64,000 nucleotides of DNA, taken from contig CAVQEG010000001.1 of NCBI GenBank assembly GCA_963711465.1, positions 1,241,699-1,305,698 of the forward strand, read 5' to 3'. Below are positions 2,319 to 34,630 of the stretch, in pieces (the stretch's first letter is position 1; each line of letters starts with the position of its first letter). A model generated the notes under the pieces. That model did not search any database. It was given only the letters and a program-made list of their open reading frames with translations, and was not told the origin of the DNA. Source of the DNA: Chlorobiota bacterium (GTDB lineage Bacteria; Bacteroidota; Ignavibacteria; OLB7). A program made the translations under genes and the position numbers.

Positions 2319-4796
2319 TCAGAATGCGTATCCGAGACTGAGCTGGAATGTGAGGTTGGAGAATTGGAACTGGTGCTGCCACAGCAGCCGCTCGCCGGCG
2401 TCGTAATTGATCGGGTCATAGATCGGAAGTCCGAATCCGGCCCAGATCGGCCCGATCGGAAGCGAATATCCGATTCCCGCGCCGATCGACACGGCGATGT
2501 TCTGACCAATGAATTTCAGGTCGGTGAGCTCGTCGACGTTTCTGGCGAACGCATTTCCGGCGTCGAGGAACACCATTGTGACGATGTTCGACGACACGGT
2601 CGCCATCGGGTCGTTCGCCTGGGGAACACCGAAGGGATGGACGCGATATTCGGCGCTCAATTCGAGCACCCCGAGTCCTCCCAGCAGCGTCCGGCTCTCC
2701 CGGAGGATATCGCGGAAGACCTGTGAATTGACGCCCTCGAGCGACTGCTCGGTCCGTGTGGCGAGCATTTCACGAGGGCCCCAGCCACGGATCGAATTCG
2801 CACCGCCTGCCCAGAACAGCGACGGCAGCGGCACGAGTGAAACGCCGCCGAAGAGCCTGGGATCGATCGCACCGATATGCGCGCGCGTGGCAAGGACACC
2901 GGTGGCAAAGGGGAAATACCATCGGCCGTCGATGTCGGCCTTGGCATAGAGTCCGTTGGCCAGCCCCACCATTCCGAATTCGACCAGCGATTTGACGAAG
3001 TACCCGTTGGTCGGCTCAAAGATGTTGTCGCGATGGTCACCGGTGAATTCGGCGCCGAGCTGCACGGTCAGATTGAGCGAGGAATACGCATCGGCCGCGG
3101 GCTGATCGTCGAGCGAATCGACGAGCGCCCTGGAGTCACCCTGCAGCACCTGATTGCGATAGATATCGCGCGCCAGCAGCACGACGACCTGGTCGATCAG
3201 TGAGGTCGAATCCGTCTGAGTGTCGAGCAGCCCTTCGGCCTGGGCCGTGGCGACACGACGCTCGGCAAGCCCGTGCAGGTATGAGGCGATGTTGATGTAC
3301 TGCAGCCACTGCCCCGTGACGTGTCCGGTGATTCCATTGACGAACGTATACGACGGAAGACGCGGAATCACCTCGGTCTGCAGCTGGTACCGTTCGGAGC
3401 GGAAAATGCGCTCCGGCAGGACGATCGTCGTGTCCCCGTTGTCGGTCGGCTCGAGGTACGTCGCGCTTTCCAGCCGGTTCTCCACTGCAAAGTCGACCGA
3501 ACTGCTGAAACGGAAACTGAGGAACGGGAACAGGAGATCGGGGATGTAATACGAGGCGCTGACACCGTACTGATTGTCGCCGACGAACTGCGACAGCCGC
3601 CCCAGGTAGCGTCCCTGAGCGGAGAAGCGACCGCCTTCACAGAACGGATCGAGCAGCCCGAAATCGACGTTGCTGCCGGCGAACCAGCGGTACTGGTTGA
3701 CACGTCGTTCGACGCTGAACTGCGGCGTGGCCTGGAGATTCAACCGCTGTCGGTAGCGCACGTGCACCTGCATCCCGAGGGTATCGCCATGCGTCAGCGC
3801 GGCCGATGAGTCAATTCGGGCAAGCTCGAAGAGACCGAGGGTGTTGTAGAGGTTGCCCACAGACTGTTCGACCTTCTGCTGCGAGTACCACGCACCCTTC
3901 TCGTAGACGATCTGATTGGAAATCTCATCGCTGCCGAGACACATGTCGACGCTGGGATCATCGAGGTAGCGTGTCTGGCCGAAGCGGTATCGCATTCCGG
4001 GCACGAGCGTCACCAGCACGCTGTCATGCGGACGGTCGGGTCGCGTTGTGTCGTCCATCAGCACGACGACGTCACCACGGCGGGCGAAGGCGTATCCGTT
4101 GTTGCGCAGCAGGCCGACCGACTGAGCGATCTCCTTATCGAGATCGGCGGCGGAATAATCCGAATTGCGCGACACGATCTTGGCCTTGCGGACCTGTGCC
4201 TGCAGTTGCTCGGGAATCGTATCGATGCCGATGTAGTTGATTCCGGAGAGGGTGTATCGAGGGCCCTCATCGATGGTGTAGCGAACGATGGCGGAATTAC
4301 GAACGGTATCGACGCGCGCCTGGAAGGCCACGGTTGCCTCATGAAAGCCGAATCGATTGTAGAGCGCCTTGATCGTGGCGGTATCGGCCGCAGCGGAGGT
4401 GAGGTTGAGGTATCGGACGTTTCCGGTGAGACTGTCGACGACGGAACTGAGCCGGTTGTGAATCACCGGGCGCACCGAATCACTGACGATCGCTGCAATC
4501 GACTCCAGGGGTGCGGTGAACGGGGTGCTGGTGAAGACGGCGAAGAAGCGACCGGCGAAGGACTGGCCGGTCGACTGCGTGACGATGTTGGCCTTGATGA
4601 GGTTGGTCGACAGCGCGCTGTTGCCTTCGAACTCGACGCCGACGAGGATTGGACGCACCGACTGGCGGTCGCGCTGCTGAAAGTGGTGGACGCCGGTCAC
4701 CTGGGCACGGGCGCCGCAACAGGCGGCGCACACCAGTACCGCGATGACCGCGAGAGCACGCGCCGGCTGGCGAAGCGGTACGACGGCGATTCGCAT
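2319..4796 (-). CDS. Omp85-family outer-membrane protein (BamA/TamA-like) with N-terminal POTRA region and 16-strand barrel
   Basis: Signal peptide, then POTRA-like VEFEGNSALSTNLIKANIVTQSTGQSF. Barrel motifs FWAGGANSIRGWGPREM (loop-6 VRGY-like) and FLDAGNAF are present, and the C-terminus ends …LSLGYAF. Confidence 0.65.
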   Translation of the reverse strand: MRIAVVPLRQPARALAVIAVLVCAACCGARAQVTGVHHFQQRDRQSVRPILVGVEFEGNSALSTNLIKANIVTQSTGQSFAGRFFAVFTSTPFTAPLESIAAIVSDSVRPVIHNRLSSVVDSLTGNVRYLNLTSAAADTATIKALYNRFGFHEATVAFQARVDTVRNSAIVRYTIDEGPRYTLSGINYIGIDTIPEQLQAQVRKAKIVSRNSDYSAADLDKEIAQSVGLLRNNGYAFARRGDVVVLMDDTTRPDRPHDSVLVTLVPGMRYRFGQTRYLDDPSVDMCLGSDEISNQIVYEKGAWYSQQKVEQSVGNLYNTLGLFELARIDSSAALTHGDTLGMQVHVRYRQRLNLQATPQFSVERRVNQYRWFAGSNVDFGLLDPFCEGGRFSAQGRYLGRLSQFVGDNQYGVSASYYIPDLLFPFLSFRFSSSVDFAVENRLESATYLEPTDNGDTTIVLPERIFRSERYQLQTEVIPRLPSYTFVNGITGHVTGQWLQYINIASYLHGLAERRVATAQAEGLLDTQTDSTSLIDQVVVLLARDIYRNQVLQGDSRALVDSLDDQPAADAYSSLNLTVQLGAEFTGDHRDNIFEPTNGYFVKSLVEFGMVGLANGLYAKADIDGRWYFPFATGVLATRAHIGAIDPRLFGGVSLVPLPSLFWAGGANSIRGWGPREMLATRTEQSLEGVNSQVFRDILRESRTLLGGLGVLELSAEYRVHPFGVPQANDPMATVSSNIVTMVFLDAGNAFARNVDELTDLKFIGQNIAVSIGAGIGYSLPIGPIWAGFGLPIYDPINYDAGERLLWQHQFQFSNLTFQLSLGYAF

Positions 4797-5143: not shown

Positions 5144-5542
5144 GGGAGCGGTCCTCCTGCATTTGTCTATGTGCGGTTGATAGTTTCAACGTTGATCCGA
5201 CCCACAGACGGTCCCGCCGTTACGGTGCCCTCGCGGCATTGCAGTTCGACGCAAGCGGGCTCGCGCTGCGTTGGCGTCCGGACAATTATCAGGCCGGTTG
5301 CCTGCCGTCATGCAGGTCGAAATCGGGACCGGGTGGATGGACAGGGTGCCGAATTTTCGGCTCGGATCTCTGTTCGACGCGCGAAGATAGACGTATTTCA
5401 CACATACGCAAGCCGAACGTGTTGCAATCACGGCCAGCGGGTATGCCCTATTGTACCCTGTTCGGTGAACGCCGAAAAAACCGTTCCGTCACGCGTGAAT
5501 TCGCCGCCCGCGCACAGGAATTTCCGCGATTGACAGAGTATG

Positions 5543-6610
5543 TCAGGTTGTAGCGTAGCGGCGTGCAATCGTGGGAATCAGATACTCCTGGAACGTCCGC
5601 CGCATGTCGTAGGCCGGCTCCCACCCCCAGTCGGCGCGCGCCCTGGCGTCGTCGACGTCTTCCGGCCACGAGTCGAGAATCCCCTGCCGCTTGTCATCCA
5701 CCTCGTAGCCCAGCTGAGCGCCGGGAAACGCGTCGAGCGTCATCCGTCGGATTTCGCCGGCAGACGGCGCGAACGCCCCGACGTTGTACACCGTGCTCGA
5801 CAGCGATTCGTACGGCGCATTGAACAGGCCAAGCAGCCCGTCGATCGCATCGGGCATCGCCATGAACGGAATTCGCGTGTCCTCGCGCGCGAAACAGTCG
5901 TAGGGCTCTGCCTTCGCCGCGGCGTGAATCATCTCCGAGGCGTAGTCGCTCGTTCCGCCCGACGGCAGTGTCACCGCGCTGATGAGCCCCGGAAACCGCA
6001 ACGCGCGGAAGTCGACGTGGTATTGATCGCGATCGGCCGCCAGCTGCCGATAGTGATGCGTGTAGTACCGCCCGGTGTGCTCGCTCGAGAGCTTGTTGAT
6101 CCCGTACATCGTCGTCGGCATCAGGTATTCCCGCTCACTCACCGCTCCGGCTGCCCGCTTCGTCTGCAGATCGCCCATTCCGTACACCGCGATCGAACTC
6201 GGGAAGATGAACTTCACGTTCGCACCGGCATTGCGCGCCTCTCCGACGGCGAACTTCAGCAGGTTCAGTGTCCCCTGCACGTTGATTTCGTGCGCGGTCT
6301 CCGGCGTGAATTCACCGCGCGTGGAGAGCATCGCCGCCAGATGGAATATCCCCGCGATCTCGTACTGCGACGCCAGACGCTGCAGCAATCCCGTGTCGAG
6401 TATGTTGCCGACAACGACATCGGCGCACCGCTCTGCCAGCTCCGGCTCCAGCGGACGAAGGTCGAGCGCGACGATGCTGTACTCACCGTCGTCGGACAAC
6501 CGCGTGATGAGCCCGTGGCCGATCTCGCCACCCGCTCCGGAGATGAGGATCACTGGTTTGCGAATCATCGAAGTGTTCCCGTAGAGTTCGGTATTCGTTG
6601 GAATGGTCAC
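5543..6610 (-). CDS. NAD-dependent epimerase/dehydratase family protein (extended SDR, L-threonine-3-dehydrogenase-like)
   Basis: N-terminal Rossmann ILISGAGGEIG motif plus the YxxxK region (TTMYGINKLSSE). Length is 355 aa. Confidence 0.55.
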   Translation of the reverse strand: MTIPTNTELYGNTSMIRKPVILISGAGGEIGHGLITRLSDDGEYSIVALDLRPLEPELAERCADVVVGNILDTGLLQRLASQYEIAGIFHLAAMLSTRGEFTPETAHEINVQGTLNLLKFAVGEARNAGANVKFIFPSSIAVYGMGDLQTKRAAGAVSEREYLMPTTMYGINKLSSEHTGRYYTHHYRQLAADRDQYHVDFRALRFPGLISAVTLPSGGTSDYASEMIHAAAKAEPYDCFAREDTRIPFMAMPDAIDGLLGLFNAPYESLSSTVYNVGAFAPSAGEIRRMTLDAFPGAQLGYEVDDKRQGILDSWPEDVDDARARADWGWEPAYDMRRTFQEYLIPTIARRYATT

Positions 6611-6654
6611 CGCCCGCGATGCAGCGCGTGCGACACCGGCGGAGTCATTGCCGC

Positions 6655-6924
6655 CTATCGACGGACGACGAACCCGGCATGGTGCTCGTCATCGACCGCG
6701 CGTGCATCGACGCGCTGCACGCGCGCGCCGGCGGGACCGATTTCGATCTGTTCGCGAAACGAACGGATGTTCTGTTCGTCGCCGGTGGCGAGAATTTCCA
6801 CAGCGCCGTCGTCGGTGTTGCGCACCCATCCGCCGATGTCGAACGACTCGGCCAGACGGGTGGTGAAGTATCGAAAGCCGACACCCTGCACCCGACCCTC
6901 GATTCTGAAACGGTAGGCAGACAT
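6655..6924 (-). CDS. acyP: Acylphosphatase
   Basis: MSAYRFRIEGRVQGVGFRYFT…GGWVRNTDDGAVEIL is the canonical acylphosphatase signature. The ORF-track start at 7221 is a spurious upstream extension and the real ATG is at 6924. Confidence 0.8.
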   Translation of the reverse strand: MSAYRFRIEGRVQGVGFRYFTTRLAESFDIGGWVRNTDDGAVEILATGDEQNIRSFREQIEIGPAGARVQRVDARAVDDEHHAGFVVRR

Positions 6925-7022
6925 GAGATCGGCAAATATCTGCAGTGCGGCCGTGTGGTCAAACGCACACTCCGTAACCGTCGGTGAATCGTTCTGCGAA
7001 CGCCGGTCGTGGCCCCTGCCCC

Positions 7023-9131
7023 TCACCACAACGGTTGCTCCAGCGCCAGTCGCGCACCGAAGCGGCTGCCGTCGATGCTGATGTTGAGCCGGGCAGCCAG
7101 ACGCTCCCCGGCGTAGCGGATCGCCACCACCGGAGAGAGCCGCCAGTCGAACTGCGAGAGTTGTTCGATACGATCCCATCCGCCGGACGCTCCAAGGCCG
7201 ACGACGAGGCCGAACCTCCACACGACGGGAATTCTCGCCTCCGCCTCCATCTCCGCAATCACCGGCCGTTCGTACGGCCCGCGAACGCCGAGCTGCAGCG
7301 GATCGCGGCCGCCGAAGCCCGGAAGGAGCGCCGCCGGCAGACGGTCGGCCACGATCGCCTCGAGTCGTGCCGCCAGCGCCAGCGTCGTCGTCGGGTAGCA
7401 GAGTGTTGAGTAGTGGCGAACATCGAGTGCGAACCGTCCGAAGTGGCCCGTCGCCAAGCCAGTCTGCGGCGCAAGCTCCGTTTCGATCGCCAGCAGCGAT
7501 CCACGGTGCGGCTCGATCCTGCTGTCACGCGTGTCGACGCGGATCGTTCCGATGATCGATGCCACCGTTGCTGAACGGTCCGCCGCCGCCTGAACCTCCG
7601 ACGAGCCAGAGGCGGCCGAGGTCGGCCCGTCGTCGCTGACACCGCGATACCTGAGCGTGGCCGCGGCGACGACCCGTGAGGTCACGCCCGTGCTGACCGT
7701 CGCCGACACCACCGCCGTCTCTCGCACCGAACCGGGGTCGGCAGCCGTGAACTCGGCACCGGCGACCTCCCGACGGTATCCCGCGTGAACATCGAGGCCG
7801 ACATCGTAGGCGAGCCCGTGACGCAGCTCTCGATCGGGCCACGATACTGTGAACTGATGGTACTCCTCTCCCCCGGTCGATCGGTAAATGGTCAGATCGA
7901 ACGACTCCGCGTCGCCCGAGGCACCGACGAGTATCGATCGGAATCCATAGCCGTACCCGGCACTCGGTGCGAACGCCGTGAGCGGAATCGTTTCATAGAT
8001 CGGCCGCACTGGCGGTTCCACCGCATCGCATACCGTTGGCGCCCCGGCGCACGCCCTCCGCATGTCCAGATCCGCCAGCACACCGTTGTGATCCGACGGA
8101 AGTACGCCATCGACCGAATCGATGAGCGCCGCATAGGCATCGATCACGCTTGCGGAATCGAATCCATGGCCCAGTAGCAGGTAGTCACTCCGGTGTGTTC
8201 GACGCGACCACAGCGACACCAGCAGGTCGTACGAATCCAGCGTGTCGCCCGATGCGTCCACGGGTCGTCCGGACCACCTGGCGTATGCGTTGAAGACGGG
8301 ATCCCACGTGGCCGGGCAGTGCGCGCCGGCATCGATCATCCCCATCGAATCGAGAAGCGTTGCCAGTTCGGGCGAGTCCGCGGTCGCACCGAGCGAACCG
8401 CCGAGCACTAGTGGCGCACCGGCCGGGAGCCTTCTGATCCGTCCGACGAGTCGATCGATCTCGCTTCGACGGCACGCACGGGCACGATCCCAGCGCTCGA
8501 CGGCTCGGTCGAATTCGCTCCGCGAAACCGTTCCCCGTTCGCGGAAGCCGGCAAGCTCCTCAATGAGCGTCGTATCGCGTGGCGGCGTCTGATTCAGCAC
8601 CGTGTTGACCAGACAGATCTCGACCGAATCGACTCGGATGGTGGCGGCTATGGCGAGCGAAGCCGGCGAGCCCTGCACGTTGATCGCACCGCCGTGCAGG
8701 CCGAACGGGCCGGAGAGCTTCCAGACGTCGAGCGACTGGAGATGGAGTTCGGGTCGGGCGAGGATCGCCAGTCCGCGCGCCCGGTCGAAGGGAAATCCGA
8801 TCGGACCGAGGCGAACGCCGCCGTCGGTCATCTGGTGAATTCTGTCGAATCCCAGTTCGCCGGAGAGCCGCGCTGCGAGCCGGGGCGAGGCGTTCTGCAG
8901 GAATACGACATCGGGATCGACCGCACCGATCGACGCCACCATCGCCCGTTCGAGTTCCTCGCGCGTGGGCGCATCCTGCCAGCGACCGTCGACGATTCCC
9001 CCCGAATGGTCATAGCCATCCCACGCACTGATGCTCAGCACGCGAAGGCGGGCGTTCTGCGCGCTCGCGACGTCAATGCACGAGAGGAGCAGACACGCCA
9101 GGGCAAGGCATCGAAGCCGGGATTGTCGCAT
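7023..9131 (-). CDS. Secreted protein: N-terminal EEP (endonuclease/exonuclease/phosphatase)-like domain fused to a C-terminal outer-membrane beta-barrel of about 350 aa (autotransporter/Omp85-like translocator)
   Basis: Signal peptide MRQSRLRCLALACLLLSCIDVASAQ. EEP motifs are present (LRVLSIS…, DPDVVFLQNA, …SDHNGVLADL). The C-terminal third has an alternating beta-strand pattern, an LGVRGPYER motif, and terminates …RLALEQPLW with an aromatic last residue. Confidence 0.6.
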   Translation of the reverse strand: MRQSRLRCLALACLLLSCIDVASAQNARLRVLSISAWDGYDHSGGIVDGRWQDAPTREELERAMVASIGAVDPDVVFLQNASPRLAARLSGELGFDRIHQMTDGGVRLGPIGFPFDRARGLAILARPELHLQSLDVWKLSGPFGLHGGAINVQGSPASLAIAATIRVDSVEICLVNTVLNQTPPRDTTLIEELAGFRERGTVSRSEFDRAVERWDRARACRRSEIDRLVGRIRRLPAGAPLVLGGSLGATADSPELATLLDSMGMIDAGAHCPATWDPVFNAYARWSGRPVDASGDTLDSYDLLVSLWSRRTHRSDYLLLGHGFDSASVIDAYAALIDSVDGVLPSDHNGVLADLDMRRACAGAPTVCDAVEPPVRPIYETIPLTAFAPSAGYGYGFRSILVGASGDAESFDLTIYRSTGGEEYHQFTVSWPDRELRHGLAYDVGLDVHAGYRREVAGAEFTAADPGSVRETAVVSATVSTGVTSRVVAAATLRYRGVSDDGPTSAASGSSEVQAAADRSATVASIIGTIRVDTRDSRIEPHRGSLLAIETELAPQTGLATGHFGRFALDVRHYSTLCYPTTTLALAARLEAIVADRLPAALLPGFGGRDPLQLGVRGPYERPVIAEMEAEARIPVVWRFGLVVGLGASGGWDRIEQLSQFDWRLSPVVAIRYAGERLAARLNISIDGSRFGARLALEQPLW

Positions 9132-9197
9132 GAGCGGCGCTGGGACGGAAGGACCGGAAGACCGTGGACCGGCGCGACAAATATAGGCGATGCCTGC

Positions 9198-10640
9198 TCA
9201 GCGAATGGGCGCAATGGCAGGTATGGCGTCCGGCGACGTCAGCATGCGCGTGTCCTCCGGTTCGACGGTCCTGCTTCCTGATGTACCGAAGTGGCGCGTC
9301 GCGGCCACGACGACACAGCGACTGTAGAAGCGTCCCTCAGGCAGATCGTTGTCGCACAGATCGTACGGTCCGCGACCGCTGACGGTGGCGCCGGCGCGAC
9401 GCAGATTCAGTGCGACCAGCCGCGCGCGCCGATCGGTCAGATCGTGACTCCGCGCGTCGTCGCTGGTCAGATCGGTGTAGGCGGTGATCGAAATCGATGC
9501 GTCGTCGGGAAGCTCCGATGCGATCGAAGCGACGACGCGCCGATTGAGTTCATTGAAGTCGGCACGGTTGGGATCGAGCCAGACGATCGAATACGTATCG
9601 GTCTGCGCATCGCGCTCACCCGACTTCCGCTTCTTTGCGACCGTGAGCACATGCACCGGAAGCTGCTGGCACTGCGCAACCACTTCCTGTCCGCCGCCTC
9701 CGTGCACGACCAGTTCGGCGCGGAGCGTCGATGCTCGGCGCAGTGCATCCGACGACAGCGCCGTCAGATCCAGGTCGATGCTCTCCGGCGGCCGCCCGTC
9801 ACCGTCGATGTGGGCGAGCTCCTCATCGCGTTCGTTGCGAAGCACCAGCTGCCAGCCCTTCGCGTTGAACGAATCCGGCTGGTTTGCATAGATGCGCAGA
9901 CGCTGCGGCGCGATCTGGGTCGTGGTGTCCACGAGACGCACCGGCTCGAGGATGTCGAAGGAGCTCGCGTAGATCTCCACACGGCGGTTCTCCTCACGAC
10001 CAGCGGAGGTGCGGTTGTTCGAGGGAATCTCCGGGAGCAGCCGACTGTCGATGCTGATCCGAGCCGTGTCGATTCCGAACGACGCGCTCAGGTAGCGGCG
10101 CACCGACTCCGCCCTGCGTCGCGCCAGCCGGGCGGTTTCGCCGAACTCCGGTTCGTCGGAACTGGTGCCGACCAGCGTCAGCTGTGCGGCGGGCAACTGG
10201 CTCAGGCGGCGCCCGACGATGTTGAGCACGTCATGGTACACCGCGAGCTGTTCGCTCGACCGCGCACCGCGCGGCGCCACGCCGGGTTCGCCAGTGCGCC
10301 GATACCGCGCCGGAAGTTCGTCCGAACCACGATCGAAGAAGACGTAGTTGAGCAGTGGCTGCAGACGCGTCGAGGCGAATTCCTCGACGCGAACGCCGGT
10401 GATCGGTTCCTCCCGACCATTGCCCCGCACGCCGACAGCAACCAGTGGGGTTCCGAACTGTGTCGAGGGCGAAGATGCCACACGCAGTGCGCGCACCGGC
10501 GACATCGAAGCGGGAGCGTACGACGCGGTGGACGTGGCGCGGGAGGTGCTCGCAACGCCGTCGACGCGTTGTGCATGAACGACGCTCGCGCTCAGTAGTG
10601 AAGTAAGAGCTAGCAGTGGGTAGACGAATCGCGGTCTCAT
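9198..10640 (-). CDS. Tandem OmpA_C-like (peptidoglycan-binding) domain protein, secreted
   Basis: Signal peptide MRPRFVYPLLALTSLLSASVVHAQ, with the true ATG at 10640. Domain 1 is FFDRGSDELPARY…LVGTSSDEPE…ARRRAESVRRYL…ENRRVEIY. Domain 2 is ITAYTDLTSDD…RRARLVALNL…NDLPEGRFYSRCVVV. It is a paralogue of 12391-13500. Confidence 0.65.
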   Translation of the reverse strand: MRPRFVYPLLALTSLLSASVVHAQRVDGVASTSRATSTASYAPASMSPVRALRVASSPSTQFGTPLVAVGVRGNGREEPITGVRVEEFASTRLQPLLNYVFFDRGSDELPARYRRTGEPGVAPRGARSSEQLAVYHDVLNIVGRRLSQLPAAQLTLVGTSSDEPEFGETARLARRRAESVRRYLSASFGIDTARISIDSRLLPEIPSNNRTSAGREENRRVEIYASSFDILEPVRLVDTTTQIAPQRLRIYANQPDSFNAKGWQLVLRNERDEELAHIDGDGRPPESIDLDLTALSSDALRRASTLRAELVVHGGGGQEVVAQCQQLPVHVLTVAKKRKSGERDAQTDTYSIVWLDPNRADFNELNRRVVASIASELPDDASISITAYTDLTSDDARSHDLTDRRARLVALNLRRAGATVSGRGPYDLCDNDLPEGRFYSRCVVVAATRHFGTSGSRTVEPEDTRMLTSPDAIPAIAPIR

Positions 10641-11074
10641 CGTGCTGCCTCCATCGAATGACGATGTAGTCGTGAGGGAGCGAGTGGTATCCGGGAAACT
10701 TCGGGGTGTGGACTCGCTGGACCTGTGTGGGATTTGGACCAAGTGTCGCGTCGGTCGTCTGCGGACCACGCGACGGATATATGGACAACGTCTCCGGACG
10801 CGGGAAGTTTGCGCCGGTGGCTGATCATGGACCTCAAAGACCGTGGGCAACCTACCACGCGGCGGGAACGGGAACTGCATTAATTCGTAAGACACCGGCG
10901 CGACGGGAGCGGATACTTGCCACCGACAGTGCATCCGCTACATTTGCGGTGGCACGAACGAACCTCTCACCATTCCCCTGTCCGGTATAACGCTCGAGCC
11001 GGGTTGGACGTCACGGCCCCCGACAGAATCCCCGTCGTTCGTACCCCTGAGCGCTGCCGGCTGACAGCCAACGC

Positions 11075-12274
11075 ATGATCCGCCGCATTCTCCCTCTCGC
11101 GATGCTCCTGGTGGCATCGGCGGCCCCCGCCCTCTCACAGCCAGCGACGATCCGGGTGGCCACCTACAACGTTCTCAACTTCTCCGGCAATGAGGGCACC
11201 AACGCCTGGCACCGCATCGGCGACTTCCGCACGGTGCTGAGTCGGATCGATCCCGACATCCTGCTCGTCCAGGAGATGGTCAATCCGAGCGGAGCCCAGG
11301 TGTTTCTCGATTCGGTGATGAGCTTCCGGGCCAATTACGCCGCCTTCGGAACCGAGTACCTCGACGGCTGCGACGAAGCGCTGTTCATCGACACGGCACG
11401 CGTGGAATTTCTCCGGGCCGTCGTGCACGATCGTGCGTTGCGCGACATCATCGAGTACGTGCTGGTGATTCGGCAGAGCAATGACACGCTGCACGCGTTC
11501 GACGCGCATCTGAAAGCGGGCGACGCCTCGGCCGACGCCGAACAGCGCACCACCGAGGTCGATCCTCTGCACGACGAAATGGGTAGCATTCCGTTCGGAG
11601 ATTACTACCTCCTGGCCGGTGATCTCAACGTGTACACGAGTGATGAAGCGGCCTATCAGTCGCTTACCTCCGGCACGAACGGCGGTCGATTCACCGATCC
11701 GATCGATCGTCCCGGCGACTGGCACAATCACTCGGAGTTCGCCGACATTTTCACCCAGTCACCCCGCACCCGCCAGTTCGACGGCGGCATCAACGGCGGT
11801 ATGGATGACAGGTTCGACTTCATCCTCGTCTCTCCGGAACTGCGAGCGCGCTTTCTGAGCGGTTCCTATACCGCCTTCGGCAACGACGGACACCACATGA
11901 ACGATTCGATCAACCAGATGCCGAACGATGCGGTCGACCTCACCACTGCCAACGCGTTGCACTACGCCAGCGATCACATTCCGGTCTACGCCGACTTCGC
12001 GTTCGATTCGCGCTTCAGCGGCGTGGCGGCTGCGTCGTCAAACGATCGGATGCGCGTCGCGCCGCTTCCTGCATCGGGAGTCGTGCGGATCGGTGATGCG
12101 ACACTTCGTGCGATTTCGCTTATCGACCTCAACGGCCGGACCGTTCGGCGCGTGTCAGCATCGGGCGGTCGGATTCGTCTGGACGTCTCCGACCTGCCGA
12201 GCGGACTCTACGAGATCCGTGCGACCGACCGCGACGGGACCGTCCGCAGGCTCACTCTGCCGGTGGTGCACTGA
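11075..12274 (+). CDS. Secreted EEP-family hydrolase (nuclease/phosphatase) with T9SS type-A C-terminal sorting domain
   Basis: Signal peptide, then canonical EEP motifs (IRVATYNVLNF, DILLVQEM, LAGDLNVY, SDHIPVYADF). The last ~80 aa (…SGLYEIRATDRDGTVRRLTLPVVH) resemble a T9SS C-terminal domain. Confidence 0.7.
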   Translation: MIRRILPLAMLLVASAAPALSQPATIRVATYNVLNFSGNEGTNAWHRIGDFRTVLSRIDPDILLVQEMVNPSGAQVFLDSVMSFRANYAAFGTEYLDGCDEALFIDTARVEFLRAVVHDRALRDIIEYVLVIRQSNDTLHAFDAHLKAGDASADAEQRTTEVDPLHDEMGSIPFGDYYLLAGDLNVYTSDEAAYQSLTSGTNGGRFTDPIDRPGDWHNHSEFADIFTQSPRTRQFDGGINGGMDDRFDFILVSPELRARFLSGSYTAFGNDGHHMNDSINQMPNDAVDLTTANALHYASDHIPVYADFAFDSRFSGVAAASSNDRMRVAPLPASGVVRIGDATLRAISLIDLNGRTVRRVSASGGRIRLDVSDLPSGLYEIRATDRDGTVRRLTLPVVH

Positions 12275-12390: not shown

Positions 12391-13500
12391 CTACCGTGCC
12401 TCCGGCGGGACGGACGGCTTCGGACCGCGGGTGATGAGAATCCGGACCGATCGTGAGAGAATTCGCCCCTCCGGAAGATCGTTCGGGAACAGGCGATCAT
12501 CCGAACCCGAGACGACGTCCACCCGGGCCTCCGACCCGAGGAGTCCCCGAAGAACGTCGGCGACACCTTCCGCGCGGCGCCGGGCGAGATCGAGATTCCC
12601 CTCGGCGCTGCCGATGCGATCGGTGAATCCCTGCACTTGCACGCGAGCGCCGGGCGGGACGCCGCTGGCGATGCGACGCAGTTCACTGCGGTGCACAGCG
12701 CTCGGATCGGCGACGTCGTAATCGAATGCCACCAGCAGCGTCGCGACACGATCGGCCTCGGCTCCACTGTGCAGGCGCACCGAGTGTTCGACCACGAGTG
12801 GAAGTCGCGCCAGCGACGAGTCGGCCACGCCGGTTGAATCCACCGCAATGAGTTCTGCCACGAGTGTATCGATCGAGGAGGTTCCCACCGTTGACGGAAT
12901 CGCCCACTCGAACGACGGAGCAGCGTTGGCGATCGAGTCACTGGAGAAGACGACGACCGGACGTTCGCCGTCATCGATCGACAGTGTCCATCGGCGTACG
13001 CCGGCTTCGGCGGTGATGATCGGCTCGAGTTGAATTCGAGGCGGATCGAACGAACGGTCGATGTGTTCGCCGTATACCGGCGAGAGAATCGCCGAGTCGG
13101 CTGCAAGCAGTTCGACCCGCCGGTTCTCCGCTCGTCCGTCGGCGGTGATCTCCCGAGCGGCGGAAATCCGACCGGTGCCCGTATCGACGGTGATCTGCTC
13201 GGTGGAGACGCCGAATCGCTCGCTGAGCACGCGGGCGACTGCCTCCGCCCGCTGCAGCGCCAGGCCTCGCGGCTCCTCACCCGAGGACATACCGCGCAGG
13301 ATGACGTGCGCCGCCGGCGTCGCGCGCAGTCGCGACGCAACCGTCGACAGCATCCCGTGGTTCAGCCGAAGCGGATCCGACGTGGTGTCCGATCCCGAGA
13401 TGACAGGTGCGAGAAAGCGTGCGGGCACGTCCGCCTGCGCCGAGTCGAAGAACACGACCGGAAGCAGAGGGGTCACGCTGCGTTCGATCGATTCGCTCAC
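12391..13500 (-). CDS. Tandem OmpA_C-domain protein (paralogue of 9198-10640), apparently translationally coupled to the upstream beta-barrel gene
   Basis: FFDSAQADVPARF…ILRGMSSGEE…LQRAEAVARVL…ENRRVELL forms the first domain. A second domain ends in NDLPEGRILSRSVRILI. The only start not buried in the upstream gene is GTG at 13500, inside a GTGA stop/start overlap, and there is no signal peptide of its own. Confidence 0.55.
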   Translation of the reverse strand: MSESIERSVTPLLPVVFFDSAQADVPARFLAPVISGSDTTSDPLRLNHGMLSTVASRLRATPAAHVILRGMSSGEEPRGLALQRAEAVARVLSERFGVSTEQITVDTGTGRISAAREITADGRAENRRVELLAADSAILSPVYGEHIDRSFDPPRIQLEPIITAEAGVRRWTLSIDDGERPVVVFSSDSIANAAPSFEWAIPSTVGTSSIDTLVAELIAVDSTGVADSSLARLPLVVEHSVRLHSGAEADRVATLLVAFDYDVADPSAVHRSELRRIASGVPPGARVQVQGFTDRIGSAEGNLDLARRRAEGVADVLRGLLGSEARVDVVSGSDDRLFPNDLPEGRILSRSVRILITRGPKPSVPPEAR

Positions 13501-14345
13501 GCGAATTCGTGCAAATTGTGCCGGGTTGCCGTCGGCGTCGATAGTCGCGCCCGCTGCGGGGGCACGTCGGCGGGCGTTGCCGGCTGTGTGATCCGGACCG
13601 GACGGTCGAACATCACGTCGAGACCAACGCCAACGCGCCGGGTACTCCATGCGTCACCGCGGTCGGTGGCCGCTTCGACATCCGACAGATCGAGTCGGGG
13701 ATAGAGGGCCCACCCCCGTCCGATGTCGATTCTGCGACGCACGACCAGACCCGCACCGATCGAAAGTCCGGGCGCAGGTACGCTCGAACGCGCCAGCTCG
13801 TGCTGTCGGGATCCGTCATCGAACGCCACGTCACCGGGACCGAGCACGGCGTCGGTGACGGTCGAGGAACCACCGATACGCAGAGACGCTATTGCCTCGA
13901 GCGCGAATTCCCATCGGGAGATTGGGCACCAGCCCGCTCCGAACGTAGCGTTGATCGCGTTGGTGAATGCAGTCAGGCGGTACTCCCGATCGACGTCGAC
14001 CAACGCATCGCTGACGGCATCGTAAATCAACTGACGACCGACCGGCGCGGCCGTAAATGACGATCGGTCAAAGGTCCATCCGAGCGAACCGCACAGCGCC
14101 AGTCGCGAAGTCAGTGCGTAGTGAACCCGAAAAGCCGCGAGTACCCCGAGCGACCACCCGCCGTCGAAAGCGCCACATGCGTCGGAACCCTCGAACACGG
14201 CGATGTGCCCCGCATCGAGCGATGCCCCCACGACAAGACCGCCCCCATAGGCGAGTGGCCCACTGGTCGTATCGATCTGGCCGAAGCTCGGTTTGATTGT
14301 AGCGGTTACGAGCACCGCGATGACGGCGAGGCGAAGTGAATACAT
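13497..14345 (-). CDS. Outer-membrane beta-barrel protein (OMP_b-brl/PorP-SprF-like size class)
   Basis: Signal peptide MYSLRLAVIAVLVTATIKPSFGQ, with the ATG at 14345 (the ORF-track start at 14378 adds 11 aa). Amphipathic beta-strand alternation runs throughout its ~280 aa. The stop overlaps the GTG of the OmpA-domain gene. Confidence 0.5.
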   Translation of the reverse strand: MYSLRLAVIAVLVTATIKPSFGQIDTTSGPLAYGGGLVVGASLDAGHIAVFEGSDACGAFDGGWSLGVLAAFRVHYALTSRLALCGSLGWTFDRSSFTAAPVGRQLIYDAVSDALVDVDREYRLTAFTNAINATFGAGWCPISRWEFALEAIASLRIGGSSTVTDAVLGPGDVAFDDGSRQHELARSSVPAPGLSIGAGLVVRRRIDIGRGWALYPRLDLSDVEAATDRGDAWSTRRVGVGLDVMFDRPVRITQPATPADVPPQRARLSTPTATRHNLHEFA

Positions 14346-14374: not shown

Positions 14375-17300
14375 TCACCGCACGATCAGCAGCGGAACAC
14401 TCTCACGTTCCTCCGCCGTGCGCAATTCGATTGTGTAGAGGCCCGAGGCCAGATCCGACACGTCCACGACCATCGTCTGCTCCTGGCTTATGCCCGTCGG
14501 CAGCTCGATCGCACGCGTCGTGCGGCCCAGCATGTCGCTGATCACCACCCGGGGCGCCGCATGCTCCGGTGCACGCCACGAGATCCGCACCGACCCCGTC
14601 GCCGGGTTCGGCTCCACACGCGTCAGCCGCGCCAGACGGCCGAAGCCGGTCCCGCGGCCTATGTCGCACCCGCTGAGCAGCACCAGGCCGTCGTGGCCTT
14701 CGGAGCCCCGAAGCGTCGACGCGCCGTCGCGGAGCTCGATGGTCGCAAACGCGATCACGTTCTGTGGCTGGCCCGTCACCAACCCCCGCATCTGCAGCAC
14801 GAACAGCGTGTCGCCGAGCAACGCCGTCCCCTCGGCCACGCCGTCGATCCGCACTCTCCCGGGGCCCAGTCGCCGCAGCGTCACCGGCCCCATCGGGCTG
14901 CTCGCCGACTCGACGTACAACGCCCGCGGGTCCATTGCCACCTCCGCCGTGAACGACCCGATGTCGTCGGTGCCCGCCAGTGCTGCATCCAGCCGCGCCA
15001 CCACATCGAACGCTTCGCCTGCCGCTGCCGCAACCGTGTCGAGCCGTACCTGCAGCGCCTCTGACTCAATGCCATCGCCCTGAAGATCGACCCACCCGTG
15101 CACGCCGTCATCGAGCACCGCCTCGAGCCGCGCCGTGTGACTGCCGACGGTCTGCGGCGTGAACGCCAGTCCGGTGTGGTAGTATTCGCCCGGACCGAGT
15201 GTGCGAGCTGCGCTCGAATCGACGCCGAACGTTGTCGCCTCAGCGCCGCCCAGCCTCAGCGTCACCACCGTCACCGCTCGCGTCGAGACATTGCGGACCC
15301 GAAGCGTATCGCTTGCACGTCGCGTCGTCCCCACCACCACGCGGCCGAAGTCGATCGCCGACGGCTGCAGCTCCAGCCCGACCGTATCACCAATACCCGT
15401 CAGCGTCACCGCCGGTTCCGATGGTGATGAATTCTGAATGTGAAGCACCGCCGTGCGCGCCCCCACCGCCACCGGCGCGAACCACGCGTCGAGCCACACC
15501 GTGTCGGCACCCTCCGGCGACAATGCGAACGGCGCGGTGCCCGGAACCACGAACGAACCCGTGTCCCCGTCCAGTGTGATCGCCAGAACCGTCGCCGGAG
15601 CGCTCCCTCGATTGGTCAGCCCGACGGCACGCGGTCCGACCGTGTCACCGAGATCGACGCGGCCGAAGTCCACCCGTCGCGTCAGCGCAACAACACCCGG
15701 CTCTACCGCCTGTCCGCCGAGTCCCACCGTCCAGCCCGCACCCGAGGCCGACTCCAGCCGAAGACGACTCTGCATCGCTCCCAGCTCCGTCGGCACCCAC
15801 CGAAGACACACCTCCACCGCCACCGAATCGACCAGCACAACCGGTGTTGTCAGCGGCTGGATGATCGACACCGACGGATCTTCGCTCGTGATCCGCGTGA
15901 TCTCGATCGGCCGGCACGACGGGTTCATCAGCTCCACGCACACCTCCGCCGTGTCGCCGACCGCCACCCGTGCGAACCACACCGAGTCCGGATCGCGAAC
16001 GACTTCCGCGACCGCCGAGGCGTTCCCGCGTAGCGCCACATGCCGATCCCCCTGATCGGTTTGCACCGTCAGTTCGGCCGACGACCATCCCGACGCCGCC
16101 GTCGGCGCGAAGCGCACGCTGTCGACCCGCGTCTCCCCCGGACCGATCAGCACGTTCGACGCCGCCGGCGACTGATAGTCCCCGACCGGCGAGATCGCGT
16201 ACCCCTCGAGTACTAGTGGCTCGCTGCCGTCGTTGTGCACCTCCACGGCGGCAGCCGGACGCTCCCCCGGAAGCACGCACGTGAACCCGATCGTATCCGG
16301 TGCGACACGCACATCATGCTCGACGCCACGACCGCGCAGCCCGACCTCCACCGTCGAGCCGTCGTCGCCACCGCCGCTCCAGTCCGCGCTGTCAGCCGCC
16401 ACACGCGTCGGACAGTACTCCACCACGATCCTCACCGTCGTTCCCGCCGCCAGCTCCTGCGGAAGCGCCGTCGGTGCAATCACCCGGAACGTCCCCGTCG
16501 GAACTCCCGCAAGCATCTGCACCGACGAGCGATTCAGTCCCACGCTGCTCGTCCCCACGTTGCGCACGCTGAACGAGTCCCGAGCACACGTCCCGACATC
16601 CACCGCCCCGAAGTCCAGCTCAACTGTCGACGCCGCAAGCACACCCCGAATGCCCCGGCCCCGAACCTGGACCACACGCGTCGGTGCATCGCTGCACCGA
16701 ACCTCGATCGCGTCGCTCACCGTCTCCTCCGACGTCGGACAGAACCGCACCCGCACCTGCACCGTGTCTCCCGGCTCCAGTCGCCGAGCGCCGCCAGACC
16801 ACGTCACCGTGACCGCGCTGCCGTCGACCGCCACGATCGTCTGCACCGTCACCGCCACGCTCCCGTCGTTGCCCACCACGATCAGCGTGTCGCGGCACGA
16901 ACCCACCGGCACATCACCGAAGTCCAGCCTCGCCGGCGCCCTCAGGTGCCGCTCGATCCCCACCCCGTGCAGCGCCACGAGCGTCGACCGCCCGTCGGCC
17001 GTGCCGTCGCTCCGAATCGACAGCTGCTCGGACGTCTCGCCGCTCAACTGCGGGCAGAAGCGAATCGTCACCGCAACCGAATCATCCGCCGCAACCTCGA
17101 ACGGCACCGATGGCGACGTCACCGCGAACGTCCCCGGCGTCAGCGACAGCCCCGTCACCCTCAGCGCGAATCGCCCGGGATTGCGGACCACGAACCGGCC
17201 CTCGCGACAGCTGTCGACCTCCACTTCGCCGAACTCCACCGTTGTCGGCTCCACCGCGATCCCCGGAGCACCGGCACACCCCTGCAGCACCACCGCACGG

Positions 17301-23997: not shown

Positions 23998-26787
23998 CTA
24001 CCGCACGACCATCATGCGCCTCGTTGCGGTGGCACTGCGGCTTCTGATGCGCAGCACATACGCGCCCGGGCGAATATCCGCGAGGTCGAGCGCCAGCCGC
24101 GTCCGCCCACCCGTGCCGACGAGCGATCGCCTCGAGGCGATCGCGCCGCGCTCGTCCACCAGTTCGAGCGTTACCGCTTCGTTCGTCGGCGCCAGCAGGT
24201 CGATCGTCGCGCGATCACGGGCCGGGTTCGGCTGCACCGATTCGATCGATAGTTCCGTCCCCGCAATCTGCCGCCGCTCGACCGCCAGCACCGGAATCGA
24301 TGTCGAGAATACACCCGCCCCATGTGTCCCGACTGCCACGAACCCGTCGGACTGCCGCGCGTCGATCATGTCGACGACCTCATTGCCGATCGACGTCGAT
24401 CCCTCCCATTCCCAGAACGTATTCATCCCATCGAGTTTCGATGTCGAGTACAGTCCCGTGCTCGTTCCCACCAGCCACAGCGTTCCATTGGAGCGATGGA
24501 GTATTTGAATCGATCGAACCGACGGCCCGTCACCGGTGCCGTCCGGATGCTGCTCGAGATTGCCGCCGACTGATTCCCACGTGATTCCCCCATCGGTCGT
24601 CGAGAAGAGCGACTGAACGTCGTAATTGGAGAACGCCACCACGATGCGGTCTGCGTCGTCAGGATCGACGGAAATGGAACTGACATATCCATTCGGAAAC
24701 GTCGCCCCTGTGATCTCGCTCGGCGCAGCGTCGGCCGAGGGCTCGTCCAGTCGGAAGAGACGACCCGTGGCGGTTCCGTAATAGAGTCGGTGCGCCGGTG
24801 TCGTCGAGAACGCGACCGAGGAGATGACCACGGTGTCGGGCAGCATCGACGCGGCAAGCCTGTCCCACCCCTCAGTGGCACTCACCGTCCGATCCATTGG
24901 GATCTGCGTAAGATCGCCGTTGTACCACAGCGCATTCCCGATGGGAAGCACCATGGCGTGGCGGTCGTTGGGATCAATTGCAAATGGATTGATGAACAGA
25001 TAATCATCCGCGACCGGACCGGCCGGATCGATCCGCGTCTGCCCCGTTGCCCGCCCCTGCGCATCGAGGGTCACACGGTAGATCCGGCCCAACTGCTTGG
25101 AGACGTACACCGATCTGCCACCATCGGCGAATGCACAATACGCTCCGTCGCTGGAACCCATCTCGGTCCACGGCTGACGTTCATCGGTGCTCGCCGTCAT
25201 CCACGTGCCGTTGTCCTGCATTCCACCAATGATCATCGGGTTGCCAGGCGAATCGTGATCGACGGCAATCGAAAAGAACTGCGTGGTCAGATAGCCGTTC
25301 GCCAGAGCGCTCCAGCGCACCGTATCGGCCAGACAATCATCCGTTCGATGCACACCGCCGTCGCTTCCGGTATACATTACATTCGGATTTCCGGGTTCGA
25401 ATACGAATACGTGCTCATCCGGGTGGTGACCGGGGTAGGAATACCGCTCGATCACGCTCGAATCGCGTTCGAAATTCTCGTACCCGCCGATCCACGACGT
25501 GTGATCGGGAGTGGAAAAGCCGTCGGTGGAACGTATTACATTCGTGCCGCCGAGAAACACGGTGTTTTCATCGACCGGATCAACCGCAATCACCAGATCG
25601 TAGCTCGACTGAGAATTGAAATCTCCCGCCCATCCTCCGTACTGCGGAATGTTGTCGGTGAGATTCTCCCAGACGCCGCCCGTGCCGGAACCATCGCCGG
25701 AACGGTAGGTGTATTTCCAGAGTGAATGCCAGAGGGAATCCCCTCGGTAGTTGAATCCGAGAGAGCCATGACCGGGCGTTTCAGAAACGAAGTAGACGAC
25801 GTTCGGATTCGATTTCGAAATTCCAATTGCCGTGCGATTGTAGTCGGCAGGCCAGTCGGGTGGAGTGATATTGACGAAAGCTCCCGCTCGCGTTCCCCGC
25901 CAGACGCCGGCGGTGCGCCCGTCGGAACTGATGGTGGCGTATACCACGCCGGAATCACCGACGGCGACATCGGTGAAGTAGCCGCTGTAGTATCCCTGGA
26001 TCGACGGACCGCCGACGACGTACGACCAGCGGTTGCCGCCGTCGGTGGATCGCTCGATGGTACCGAACACGGCGGCATAGACGACATCGTGGGCCGTATC
26101 GGAGGGATCGGTCGCGACGCGCCACGAGAGGTCGAAGATGTTGTCGAAGTGCGCGGGATCATCGCCTGCACGACGCGTCAGCGGTACCCATGACAGCCCG
26201 CGATCGGTCGACTTGTAGAGGCCGTCGCCGTAGAAATACGCTCCGGCGCCCGACTCGCTGGCCCCGACCAGTTCCCCGCTCCCGCAGTACCATACGTTGG
26301 TGTGACCGGGCCTCGTATCCTGCGCCAGGCACGTGATCGACGGATCCTGATCGAGTCCTGTGGTGCGTGTCCAGGAATGGCCCTGATCGGTCGAGCGCCA
26401 CATTCGACCGCTGACACCGCCGGCGAGCAGCACGTTGGTGTCGCTCACATCGATGGCGAGTGCGCGCGTACGGCCTCCGATATTCCACGGTCCCCGCTGA
26501 CGCCAGTCATAGTCGAGTATGCCGGCGCGTTTGGAGTCTGAACCAACTGCCGGAATGGTGCGCGCGAAGGCGAGCTCACGTTCACGTGCATCGCGGGGAA
26601 CGCGGCCGGTGCGCGGATCGGCCAGTCGCATGATCTCCCAGGCGACGCGTTCGCGGGAGAACTCCGAGTCTTCGGAGCCGCGCGCCGACGCGGCAGCACC
26701 GGACCGCAGGTGCATGAAGACGACGATTGCGGCGGCGGCCGAAATCGCGCAGGCGATCAGTACGAGAATTCGCAGGCGTGTGGACAT
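23998..26787 (-). CDS. BNR-repeat beta-propeller protein (glycoside-hydrolase/sortilin-like) with T9SS type-A CTD
   Basis: Multiple S/TxDxGxxW BNR motifs (STDQGHSW, STDRGLSW, STDGGNRW, TTDGGITW). The C-terminal 80 aa (…PGAYVLRIRSRSATATRRMMVVR) form a T9SS CTD. An N-terminal signal/TM segment is present. Confidence 0.65.
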   Translation of the reverse strand: MSTRLRILVLIACAISAAAAIVVFMHLRSGAAASARGSEDSEFSRERVAWEIMRLADPRTGRVPRDARERELAFARTIPAVGSDSKRAGILDYDWRQRGPWNIGGRTRALAIDVSDTNVLLAGGVSGRMWRSTDQGHSWTRTTGLDQDPSITCLAQDTRPGHTNVWYCGSGELVGASESGAGAYFYGDGLYKSTDRGLSWVPLTRRAGDDPAHFDNIFDLSWRVATDPSDTAHDVVYAAVFGTIERSTDGGNRWSYVVGGPSIQGYYSGYFTDVAVGDSGVVYATISSDGRTAGVWRGTRAGAFVNITPPDWPADYNRTAIGISKSNPNVVYFVSETPGHGSLGFNYRGDSLWHSLWKYTYRSGDGSGTGGVWENLTDNIPQYGGWAGDFNSQSSYDLVIAVDPVDENTVFLGGTNVIRSTDGFSTPDHTSWIGGYENFERDSSVIERYSYPGHHPDEHVFVFEPGNPNVMYTGSDGGVHRTDDCLADTVRWSALANGYLTTQFFSIAVDHDSPGNPMIIGGMQDNGTWMTASTDERQPWTEMGSSDGAYCAFADGGRSVYVSKQLGRIYRVTLDAQGRATGQTRIDPAGPVADDYLFINPFAIDPNDRHAMVLPIGNALWYNGDLTQIPMDRTVSATEGWDRLAASMLPDTVVISSVAFSTTPAHRLYYGTATGRLFRLDEPSADAAPSEITGATFPNGYVSSISVDPDDADRIVVAFSNYDVQSLFSTTDGGITWESVGGNLEQHPDGTGDGPSVRSIQILHRSNGTLWLVGTSTGLYSTSKLDGMNTFWEWEGSTSIGNEVVDMIDARQSDGFVAVGTHGAGVFSTSIPVLAVERRQIAGTELSIESVQPNPARDRATIDLLAPTNEAVTLELVDERGAIASRRSLVGTGGRTRLALDLADIRPGAYVLRIRSRSATATRRMMVVR

Positions 26788-34296: not shown

Positions 34297-34630
34297 GAAT
34301 GTCGGAGTAGTGGCGCCACAGGCGTCACGATGGTTTGTCGTTGTCGTGCGGCCCGATCTCCCATCCGGCGATCCAGCCCGTGGTATGGCGTCTCGAAATT
34401 CTCCGCGTCGACCTCCTCGACTCGTGCGTGCAACTCGTGCGTGAAAACGGTCACCAATGAACATCGCCCGACGCGGTTCGTACCTCTCAGGACGGGGACC
34501 TGGGGACTGACCCGAAGCGGGCGACCCGCTATATTACCATAGTTGCGTCAACGCGACAACTGCCCGTCAGACGCCGTCGCACCCCTCTTCCGAAGGCGAT
34601 TTTTTCACGCTCCCCAAGGCCATCATCCCG

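Follow-up and report, generated by a model that had tools for sequence, protein, structure and literature searches.

A POTRA-less EEP-Omp85 fusion protein from a Chlorobiota genome, best read as a lineage-specific pseudoenzyme

Outer-membrane proteins of the Omp85 superfamily occur in two described forms without POTRA domains, the 'noNterm' and the 'Metallo' subfamilies. In 'Metallo' proteins, a phosphoesterase-superfamily domain (PF00149) is fused N-terminally to the POTRA-less barrel (Heinz & Lithgow 2014, PMC4104836). Both subfamilies have a patchy spread, resembling that of horizontal gene transfer, in the FCB group and other environmental bacteria (PMC4104836), and the noNterm Omp85 paralogues of Leptospira are POTRA-less as well (PMC11358297). 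The role of such proteins is an open question, as is the POTRA-free export or holding of a folded enzyme (PMC4104836, PMC11358297). Type Vd secretion, in turn, is defined by a lipase passenger, a single POTRA and a barrel, with only lipase passengers found so far (PMC6555100), and the Leptospira sphingomyelinase-like proteins Sph1 and Sph3 are exported and keep the endonuclease/exonuclease/phosphatase (EEP) fold after the loss of several catalytic residues (PMC4537108). Here, we analyze a gene on a 64,000-nucleotide stretch of a Chlorobiota genome (contig CAVQEG010000001.1; the whole stretch is called the window), which encodes a fusion of an EEP domain to an Omp85 barrel. The 'noNterm' and 'Metallo' subfamilies are its closest described kinds (PMC4104836, PMC11358297); an enzyme-Omp85 fusion without POTRA is therefore already known in kind, and new is the EEP domain as the fused part. 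An original prediction, made from the DNA letters alone, had regarded the gene product as an EEP-like passenger with a degenerate catalytic site on an outer-membrane barrel, possibly an autotransporter or a PlpD-like secretion unit.

On sequence grounds, the window protein is best read as a lineage-specific pseudoenzyme, a divergent member of an EEP-Omp85 family. Its 702-codon open reading frame (ORF), which begins with ATG, is intact according to the ORF list and the translation, and its coordinates were verified. All strings quoted in the original prediction (DPDVVFLQNA, GGSLG, SDHNGVLADL, LGVRGPYER and the terminal QPLW) were found in the translation. The protein is composed of the following parts, with evidence from Pfam and from an AlphaFold2 (AF2) model:

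7023..9131, minus strand: whole gene, 702-aa EEP-Omp85 fusion protein (ORF; PF03372 and PF01103 above cut-off; full-length homologues)
9060..9131, minus strand: signal peptide, aa 1-24, MRQSRLRCLALACLLLSCIDVASA, before QN, with an ASA/Q cleavage motif (by inspection)
8049..9050, minus strand: EEP fold domain, alpha/beta, aa 28-361 (Pfam and AF2)
8001..8048, minus strand: 16-residue tether AGAPTVCDAVEPPVRP, aa 362-377, leading from the EEP domain to barrel strand 1 (AF2 secondary structure)
7026..8000, minus strand: 16-stranded Omp85-type beta-barrel, aa 378-702 (AF2 and PF01103)
7263..7349, minus strand: loop 6, aa 595-623 (29 residues), between strands 11 and 12 (AF2; low model confidence here)
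7179..7199, minus strand: strand-13 GLGASGG, aa 645-651, with the family Asp changed to Gly, D647G (alignment, conserved-column list)
7023-7025, minus strand: stop codon of the EEP-Omp85 gene

The N-terminal EEP fold was confirmed by the Pfam model PF03372, which recognizes this four-layer alpha/beta fold at aa 64-348 with 36.5 bits (cut-off 24.5), and the barrel was matched by PF01103 (Omp85) at aa 421-594 with 30.9 bits (cut-off 24). No match at E<=1 was obtained in Pfam for POTRA (PF07244/PF08479), PF03797 or patatin (PF01734). Among the NCBIfam models, a generic 'Omp85 family' match stayed sub-threshold, the BamA/TamL models scored far under their cut-offs and no equivalog matched. The AF2 model used here was computed from an alignment of 62 sequences (A2) and reached a predicted local distance difference test score (pLDDT) of 90.0 and a predicted template modelling score of 0.88; an earlier model, built on 7 sequences, had a pLDDT of 59 and was discarded as unreliable. 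In the model used, exactly 16 strands are found at aa 378-697 (first strand 378-388, last strand 690-697), and loop 6, the sole long loop of the barrel, carries an RG motif and is placed as in Omp85 proteins. Thus, the self-contained C-terminal outer-membrane barrel proposed originally is real, but it is of the Omp85 type and not of the autotransporter type PF03797. A classical type Va autotransporter is contradicted by the absence of a PF03797 match and by 16 strands instead of 12. A hidden POTRA domain was rejected as well, since no match was found at E<=1 and the tether of 16 residues offers no space for the approximately 75 aa needed; in front of strand 1, the model contains no helix beyond residues 357-361. 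With neither a POTRA nor a lipase passenger, and with an EEP domain on this short tether, the proposed assignment to PlpD and type Vd could not be upheld either.

Structural matches of the barrel are headed by BamA and TamA, with FhaC and CdiB more distant. The nearest structural matches of the EEP domain are uncharacterised bacterial EEP proteins, nSMase2, TDP2 and nocturnin at similar scores. Deducing a substrate class from the fold was therefore given up, as sphingomyelinase, TDP2 and deadenylase-like enzymes score alike and none is singled out. At the N-terminus, the model shows a helix at aa 2-16 within the signal peptide. A lipobox-like LLSC at C18 is non-canonical; homologues have equivalent hydrophobic N-termini without this Cys.

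Evidence for a pseudoenzyme comes from the active site. Eight positions were tabulated (N, E, H, D, N, D, D, H), anchored on hidden Markov model alignments to beta-hemolysin and TDP2 and identified with the help of textbook knowledge on DNase I, APE1 and sphingomyelinase. Five of the eight residues are replaced in the window protein (N35S, E80N, H178V, D246S, N248G), leaving only D316, D347 and H348:

9027..9029, minus strand: S35, where the family has an invariant Asn in the first EEP strand (alignment tables)
8892..8894, minus strand: N80, in place of the metal-binding Glu of the LQE motif (alignments; profile alignment to the TDP2 LQE)
8598..8600, minus strand: V178, in place of the invariant His of the NVH motif (alignment tables)
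8388..8396, minus strand: S246-L247-G248, in place of the Asp and Asn of GDxN (compared with beta-hemolysin GGDLN and TDP2 GDxN)
8184-8186, minus strand: D316, kept
8088..8096, minus strand: S346-D347-H348, the kept C-terminal SDH motif (alignment tables)

Judging from the lost residues, the window protein would be unable to perform metal-dependent phosphoester hydrolysis. The degenerate catalytic site proposed originally is thus real, but more degenerate than the two motifs noted at that time, and it is not a property of the family as a whole. In a sample of 41 genome-locus sequences plus 26 rows of fusions and 15 of EEP-only proteins from alignment A2, all eight positions are kept by every fusion and EEP-only relative examined except for the window protein and one other, P0029, and two further metagenome fusions have canonical active-site motifs. 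According to the alignments, the degenerate site thus reflects a loss specific to one lineage, in a family which otherwise appears catalytically intact.

This second degenerate member, P0029 (691 aa), was obtained in the exhaustive protein search and has 32% identity to the window protein. It reads FVQG, NVRL and GNFD at the respective motifs (replacements E->G, H->R, D->N and N->D), keeps SDH and is encoded by an intact ORF. Since P0029 and the window protein are not nearest neighbours and their replacement residues differ, the active-site losses are probably independent. A shared origin of the degeneracy was rejected for the same reasons, although the deep topology of the tree is unreliable.

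The divergence extends to the barrel. In Omp85 proteins, the Asp of the strand-13 motif (F/G)xDxG pairs with the loop-6 Arg, as is known from work on FhaC and BamA. Family barrels, including the barrel-only relatives described below, conserve GGxxTLRGxPxDRF in loop 6 and G-x-D-A-G-K-V in strand 13. In the window protein, the strand-13 Asp is lost, and VRG is found at 616-618 (GVRGPYER), shifted by an indel in the low-pLDDT loop, such that Q613/L614 stand at the aligned positions. The C-terminal FGHxF of the family is altered, too, and the last residue is still aromatic. Of the family-conserved columns, the window protein keeps 31/46 in the EEP domain and 34/62 in the barrel, so that 43/108 are changed, while most members keep more than 90%. 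Its terminal branch is the longest in the family (0.423) and its Pfam scores are about half those of a canonical member for the same models.

Such divergence would also be expected of a decaying gene, i.e., a functionless relic whose reading frame has stayed open only through the scarcity of stop codons in DNA of 66% GC. The five lost catalytic residues, the missing strand-13 Asp, the altered FGHxF and the changed conserved columns fit decay, as do the long branch, the halved Pfam scores, the occurrence of the sequence in one genome only and the lack of any relative above approximately 35% identity (indexed and exhaustive searches, two metagenome scans). In particular, the exhaustive search and the two metagenome scans gave no closer degenerate relative, nor one suited to an estimate of dN/dS (the ratio of nonsynonymous to synonymous substitution rates). 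However, 702 codons have remained without a stop or frameshift even though two thirds of the residues were replaced, whereas the remaining frames over 7023..9131 all close within 240 codons. The codon-position GC (GC3 0.754 > GC1 0.701 > GC2 0.533) follows a pattern like that of the adjacent genes. Further, the signal peptide, the EEP core columns W37, G39, D41, SDH and TWD, and the terminal aromatic residue are kept, and the apparently independent P0029 is intact as well, suggesting that a non-catalytic state is viable. We therefore regard decay as improbable. Since the long ORF is intact despite its deep divergence, it is probable, as far as can be judged from sequence, that the window protein has been kept as an outer-membrane protein with a non-catalytic role in binding or structure.

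Ala, Arg and Gly are enriched in the window protein, and a strong GC-driven shift in composition explains part of its divergence, but not E80N or the remaining replacements in the active site. Lysine occurs only once among the 702 residues (0.1%, compared with a family mean of 2.8%).

The family itself was delimited by several searches. An indexed search yielded six full-length homologues with 28–35% identity (E 1e-104 to 1e-73, coverage 93–98%), all of which have PF03372 and PF01103. The window protein scores 1065 bits against the family profile, which is not independent of it. An exhaustive search of 1.84 billion representatives with the profile found 323 proteins at E<=1e-30; among them are about 20 full-length fusions (690–745 aa), about 15 fragments spanning the domain junction, many barrel-only proteins (350–385 aa, profile positions ~385–718) and many EEP-only proteins (340–380 aa, profile positions ~10–370). 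A word-indexed profile search brought no fusions beyond these. Among the species genomes of GTDB, metagenome-assembled genomes (MAGs) with the fusion carry the labels Aminicenantes, Ignavibacteriota/Ignavibacteriales, Bacteroidota, Chlorobiaceae and Gemmatimonadota, and the most identical homologue of this genome scan (34%) is from a Gemmatimonadota MAG. In three MAGs (loci L014, L015 and L018; loci of relatives are numbered L001 and up and have their own coordinates), the fusion gene appears to be broken by a frame change inside a domain, which is either an assembly error or a real pseudogene. Members are labelled in databases as 'endonuclease/exonuclease/phosphatase family metal-dependent hydrolase' or as 'BamA/TamA family outer membrane protein'. 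The family is rare and uncharacterised. The original prediction knew of no characterised EEP passenger in such a setting, and in agreement with this, no paper on the fusion of an EEP domain with an Omp85 barrel was found in the literature searched.

Concerning its location, the window protein would be exported by the Sec machinery and then inserted by the BAM (beta-barrel assembly machinery) pathway, with its POTRA-less 16-stranded barrel anchoring the EEP domain via the 16-residue tether. In proteins of known Omp85 topology such as BamA, TamA and FhaC, strand 1 starts on the periplasmic side. Because of this topology, the short tether and the missing POTRA, the EEP domain would by default lie on the periplasmic side of the outer membrane, provided that the tether does not run through the barrel. 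For canonical members, a catalytically active phosphoesterase dependent on Mg2+ would be held at the outer membrane by the barrel. Taken as a composite, we consider it fairly probable that the window protein is an outer-membrane EEP-Omp85 protein, a non-catalytic derivative of a phosphoesterase, with its EEP domain at the periplasmic face.

Alternatively, the barrel might move its own EEP domain to the surface, as has been proposed for PlpD and FplA, with the tether finally lying within the barrel. In this main rival explanation, a type V-like self-export, the window protein would present its EEP domain on the exterior of the cell as a binding module without catalysis. Its barrel has 16 strands, as type Vd and TpsB barrels do, the enzyme precedes the barrel as in PlpD, and the EEP-only relatives are secreted proteins or lipoproteins. 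On the other hand, a POTRA is missing, the tether is short and the barrel is BamA/TamA-like rather than FhaC-like, and we think self-export rather unlikely. Part of the evidence for it comes from split and single-domain relatives, as follows.

In one genome, the two domains are encoded by separate adjacent genes (L017:5998-8238), namely an EEP gene of 372 aa, which stops just past the SDH motif, an 18-nt spacer with GAGGGGG, and a barrel gene of 367 aa. Both genes have their own signal peptide, and unrelated metabolic genes (nitroreductase, pterin-binding, MTHFR) lie on either side of the pair. As enzyme and barrel are fused in most genomes and form a split adjacent pair in one, this Rosetta-stone evidence argues that they work together, and the barrel would be the membrane partner of the EEP enzyme. 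The operon, with an enzyme gene and a barrel gene each carrying a signal peptide, also resembles a two-partner system, which favors self-export.

EEP-only relatives occur in Spirochaetota/Leptospirales, Bdellovibrionales and others, and no barrel gene was found near them in about 19 loci. Lipoprotein-type N-termini (for example ...ATIGCGRK, ...LLTAC and ...ANGGC) were observed in L023, L025, L026 and L034 (Leptospirales), in L040 (Bdellovibrionales) and in L029. Depending on the lineage, the EEP module thus appears to be attached to the membrane either through a lipid anchor or through a barrel.

The barrel-only clade comprises more than 466 proteins, mostly labelled 'BamA/TamA family'. Its profile matches Fusobacterium nucleatum BamA (9ccg) with E 8e-25, and thus much more closely than E. 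coli BamA (3e-7) or TamA (7e-5). Several of these relatives have weak, below-cut-off ShlB/FhaC matches, a further point for self-export, and the DUF5982 model scores 19.2 for a barrel-only relative (cut-off 23.9) without matching the window protein. The neighbourhoods of barrel-only genes were compared in a sample of nine genes, which is small, and T9SS (type IX secretion system) cargo genes are common in these phyla. At two loci (L059:2101-5221 and L063:1730-5056), the barrel-only gene directly follows a gene for Metallophos, 5'-nucleotidase_C and a T9SS tail, with gaps of 1 nt and 57 nt, which suggests that members of the clade are co-transcribed with exported phosphoesterases. A gene of the same composition is located approximately 4 kb upstream of the barrel-only gene at L057:1-5134, and another T9SS cargo gene lies directly before the one at L061. 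The co-location of barrel-only genes with T9SS-exported, extracellular phosphoesterases speaks for self-export and weighs against a periplasmic EEP domain.

Pairs of a histidine kinase and an OmpR/PhoB-type response regulator were observed just upstream of barrel-only genes (L063:1-1540 and L064:1-2596) and near a fusion gene (L001:5134-7739); these may hint at a regulated, perhaps phosphate-responsive, expression. A Bacteroidota-like locus (L058:543-9089) contains a T9SS EEP homologue, a barrel-only Omp85 gene and a genuine Patatin-POTRA-Omp85 (PlpD-like) gene within 9 kb.

Neighbourhoods, the EEP fusion and the published PF00149-Omp85 fusions together suggest that this type of barrel is recurrently linked to exported phosphoesterases. 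One may go further and propose that the POTRA-less Omp85 clade is a dedicated outer-membrane partner of such enzymes, and that the window protein is a pseudoenzyme, i.e., a ligand-binding receptor, derived from it. The partners would then be EEP-fused, arranged in an operon of EEP and barrel genes (L017), PF00149-fused ('Metallo') or co-transcribed with T9SS-tailed 5'-nucleotidases (L059, L063). We hold this wider proposal to be quite unlikely; if true, it would amount to a new minimal module for surface display, secretion or phosphate scavenging without POTRA.

The likeness of the barrel to BamA, TamA and Sam50, its nearest relatives in structure and sequence, leads to another explanation, in which the POTRA-less barrel is an insertase or a lipid-handling device like these proteins and the EEP domain a periplasmic accessory or substrate-processing domain. 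A foldase role is considered possible for noNterm Omp85 proteins in the literature (PMC11358297, PMC4104836), and a separate POTRA-bearing BamA/TamL-like Omp85 is encoded in the window at 2319-4796. Nevertheless, neither a POTRA nor another substrate-docking domain was detected, a conserved partner gene was not found and nothing points to a client protein; moreover, the signature of loop 6 and strand 13, which Omp85 function seems to require, appears to be lost from the window copy. A role as an assembly factor is thus very improbable.

The genomic context shows an envelope-related setting. The region contains genes for MreC, MreD, two OmpA-family paralogues and several T9SS-tailed proteins. 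The order on the minus strand is an OmpA-family gene (9198-10934), the EEP-Omp85 gene, an acylphosphatase gene (~6655-6930) and an NAD-epimerase gene (5543-6610). The OmpA-family gene is located 66 nt upstream of the fusion gene and was not found next to other fusions. No conserved partner gene was found, as the neighbourhoods of the homologous fusions differ, and unannotated neighbours of 424–478 aa were rejected as a common partner because they are mutually unrelated. A plus-strand ORF of 458 aa (5540-6916) was also dismissed: it has no family match and, given the epimerase and acylphosphatase genes on the minus strand, is an antisense artefact of high-GC DNA.

A T9SS-tailed EEP gene (11075..12274) with all canonical motifs lies about 1.9 kb from the fusion gene. 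This gene of the original prediction is thus real, but the proposal that the cell exports the same fold by two routes holds at the superfamily level only, since a pairwise comparison of the T9SS EEP protein with the fused EEP domain gave no significant similarity and a paralogy of the two was rejected. A homologue of the T9SS EEP gene recurs only near one barrel-only gene, 2.2 kb upstream of it in L058 (30% identity, E 2e-37). T9SS-tailed neighbours at fusion and split loci are miscellaneous, and we do not claim a conserved link of the T9SS EEP gene and the fusion. The two OmpA-family paralogues (9198-10934 and 12391-13650, both minus strand) flank the T9SS EEP gene; they share 29% identity and have two OmpA-like stretches each.

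Upstream of the fusion gene, one match was found to TAnnTTTG, which we take to be the consensus of the Bacteroidota-type -7 promoter box:

9178..9185, minus strand: match to the -7 box TAnnTTTG, TATATTTG, 46 nt upstream of the fusion ATG

This TATATTTG hints weakly at a possible promoter of the fusion gene's own. Across the window, 3 matches were found and 3.47 expected, i.e., no enrichment over chance. Two of the three adjoin EEP genes upstream (9178-9185, minus strand; 10939-10946, plus strand).

Further along the window, the region is rich in T9SS cargo. It includes a protein of 1920 aa with HYDIN/ASH-type Ig-like repeats and a T9SS tail (14375-20137, minus strand) and a protein of 929 aa with weak sub-threshold BNR/sortilin-like matches and a near-threshold T9SS-tail match (23998-26787, minus strand). 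A response-regulator receiver fused to a PglZ domain (alkaline-phosphatase superfamily) is encoded at 32716-34464 (minus strand).

Regarding annotation, the gene should be labelled neither as an active 'metal-dependent hydrolase' nor as BamA/TamA. The EEP-Omp85 family offers a tractable handle on the questions raised by POTRA-less Omp85 proteins, as its chemistry is easily assayed and as it exists in fused, split and barrel-only forms; its natural catalytically dead variants, the window protein and P0029, could serve as internal controls. Should the EEP domain lie on the cell surface, a POTRA-less class carrying a new passenger fold would be added to type V secretion; should it lie in the periplasm, the family would exemplify an Omp85 barrel that fastens an enzyme to the outer membrane's inner face.

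Compared with known systems, the fusion shares most with the POTRA-less subfamilies. Like 'Metallo' and 'noNterm' proteins it has a 16-stranded Omp85 barrel without POTRA, and as in 'Metallo' proteins a domain of a phosphoesterase superfamily is fused directly to it. However, the enzyme domain belongs to PF03372 and not to PF00149, so that the window protein is an analogue of 'Metallo' by architecture rather than a member of that sequence cluster, and its barrel is not a clear noNterm barrel of the DUF5982 type. PlpD of Pseudomonas aeruginosa and FplA of F. nucleatum (type Vd) likewise have a Sec signal peptide, an N-terminal enzyme and a C-terminal 16-stranded barrel of the Omp85 family, but theirs are combined with one POTRA and a patatin-like lipase, whereas the window protein has an EEP domain, a 16-residue tether and no POTRA. 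In L058, a Patatin-POTRA-Omp85 gene is found at a distance of 3 kb from a barrel-only relative, which shows that these architectures are separate and occur side by side. Type Va autotransporters differ in having a 12-stranded PF03797 barrel with an alpha-helical pore linker. The L017 pair, an enzyme gene followed by a gene for an Omp85-superfamily barrel, has the operon shape of two-partner secretion (FHA/FhaC, CdiA/CdiB), but TpsB carries two POTRA domains and TpsA a two-partner secretion domain, neither of which is present in the fusion or in the L017 pair. In contrast to BamA, TamA and Sam50, the window protein is without POTRA, its barrel is much shorter (~325 aa) and the strand-13 Asp is lost. 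Finally, Sph1 and Sph3 of Leptospira are also catalytically degenerate, exported EEP proteins that exist beside intact paralogues or relatives (PMC4537108); they differ in being soluble or secreted proteins of a pathogen without a barrel and are not specifically related to the EEP subfamily described here.

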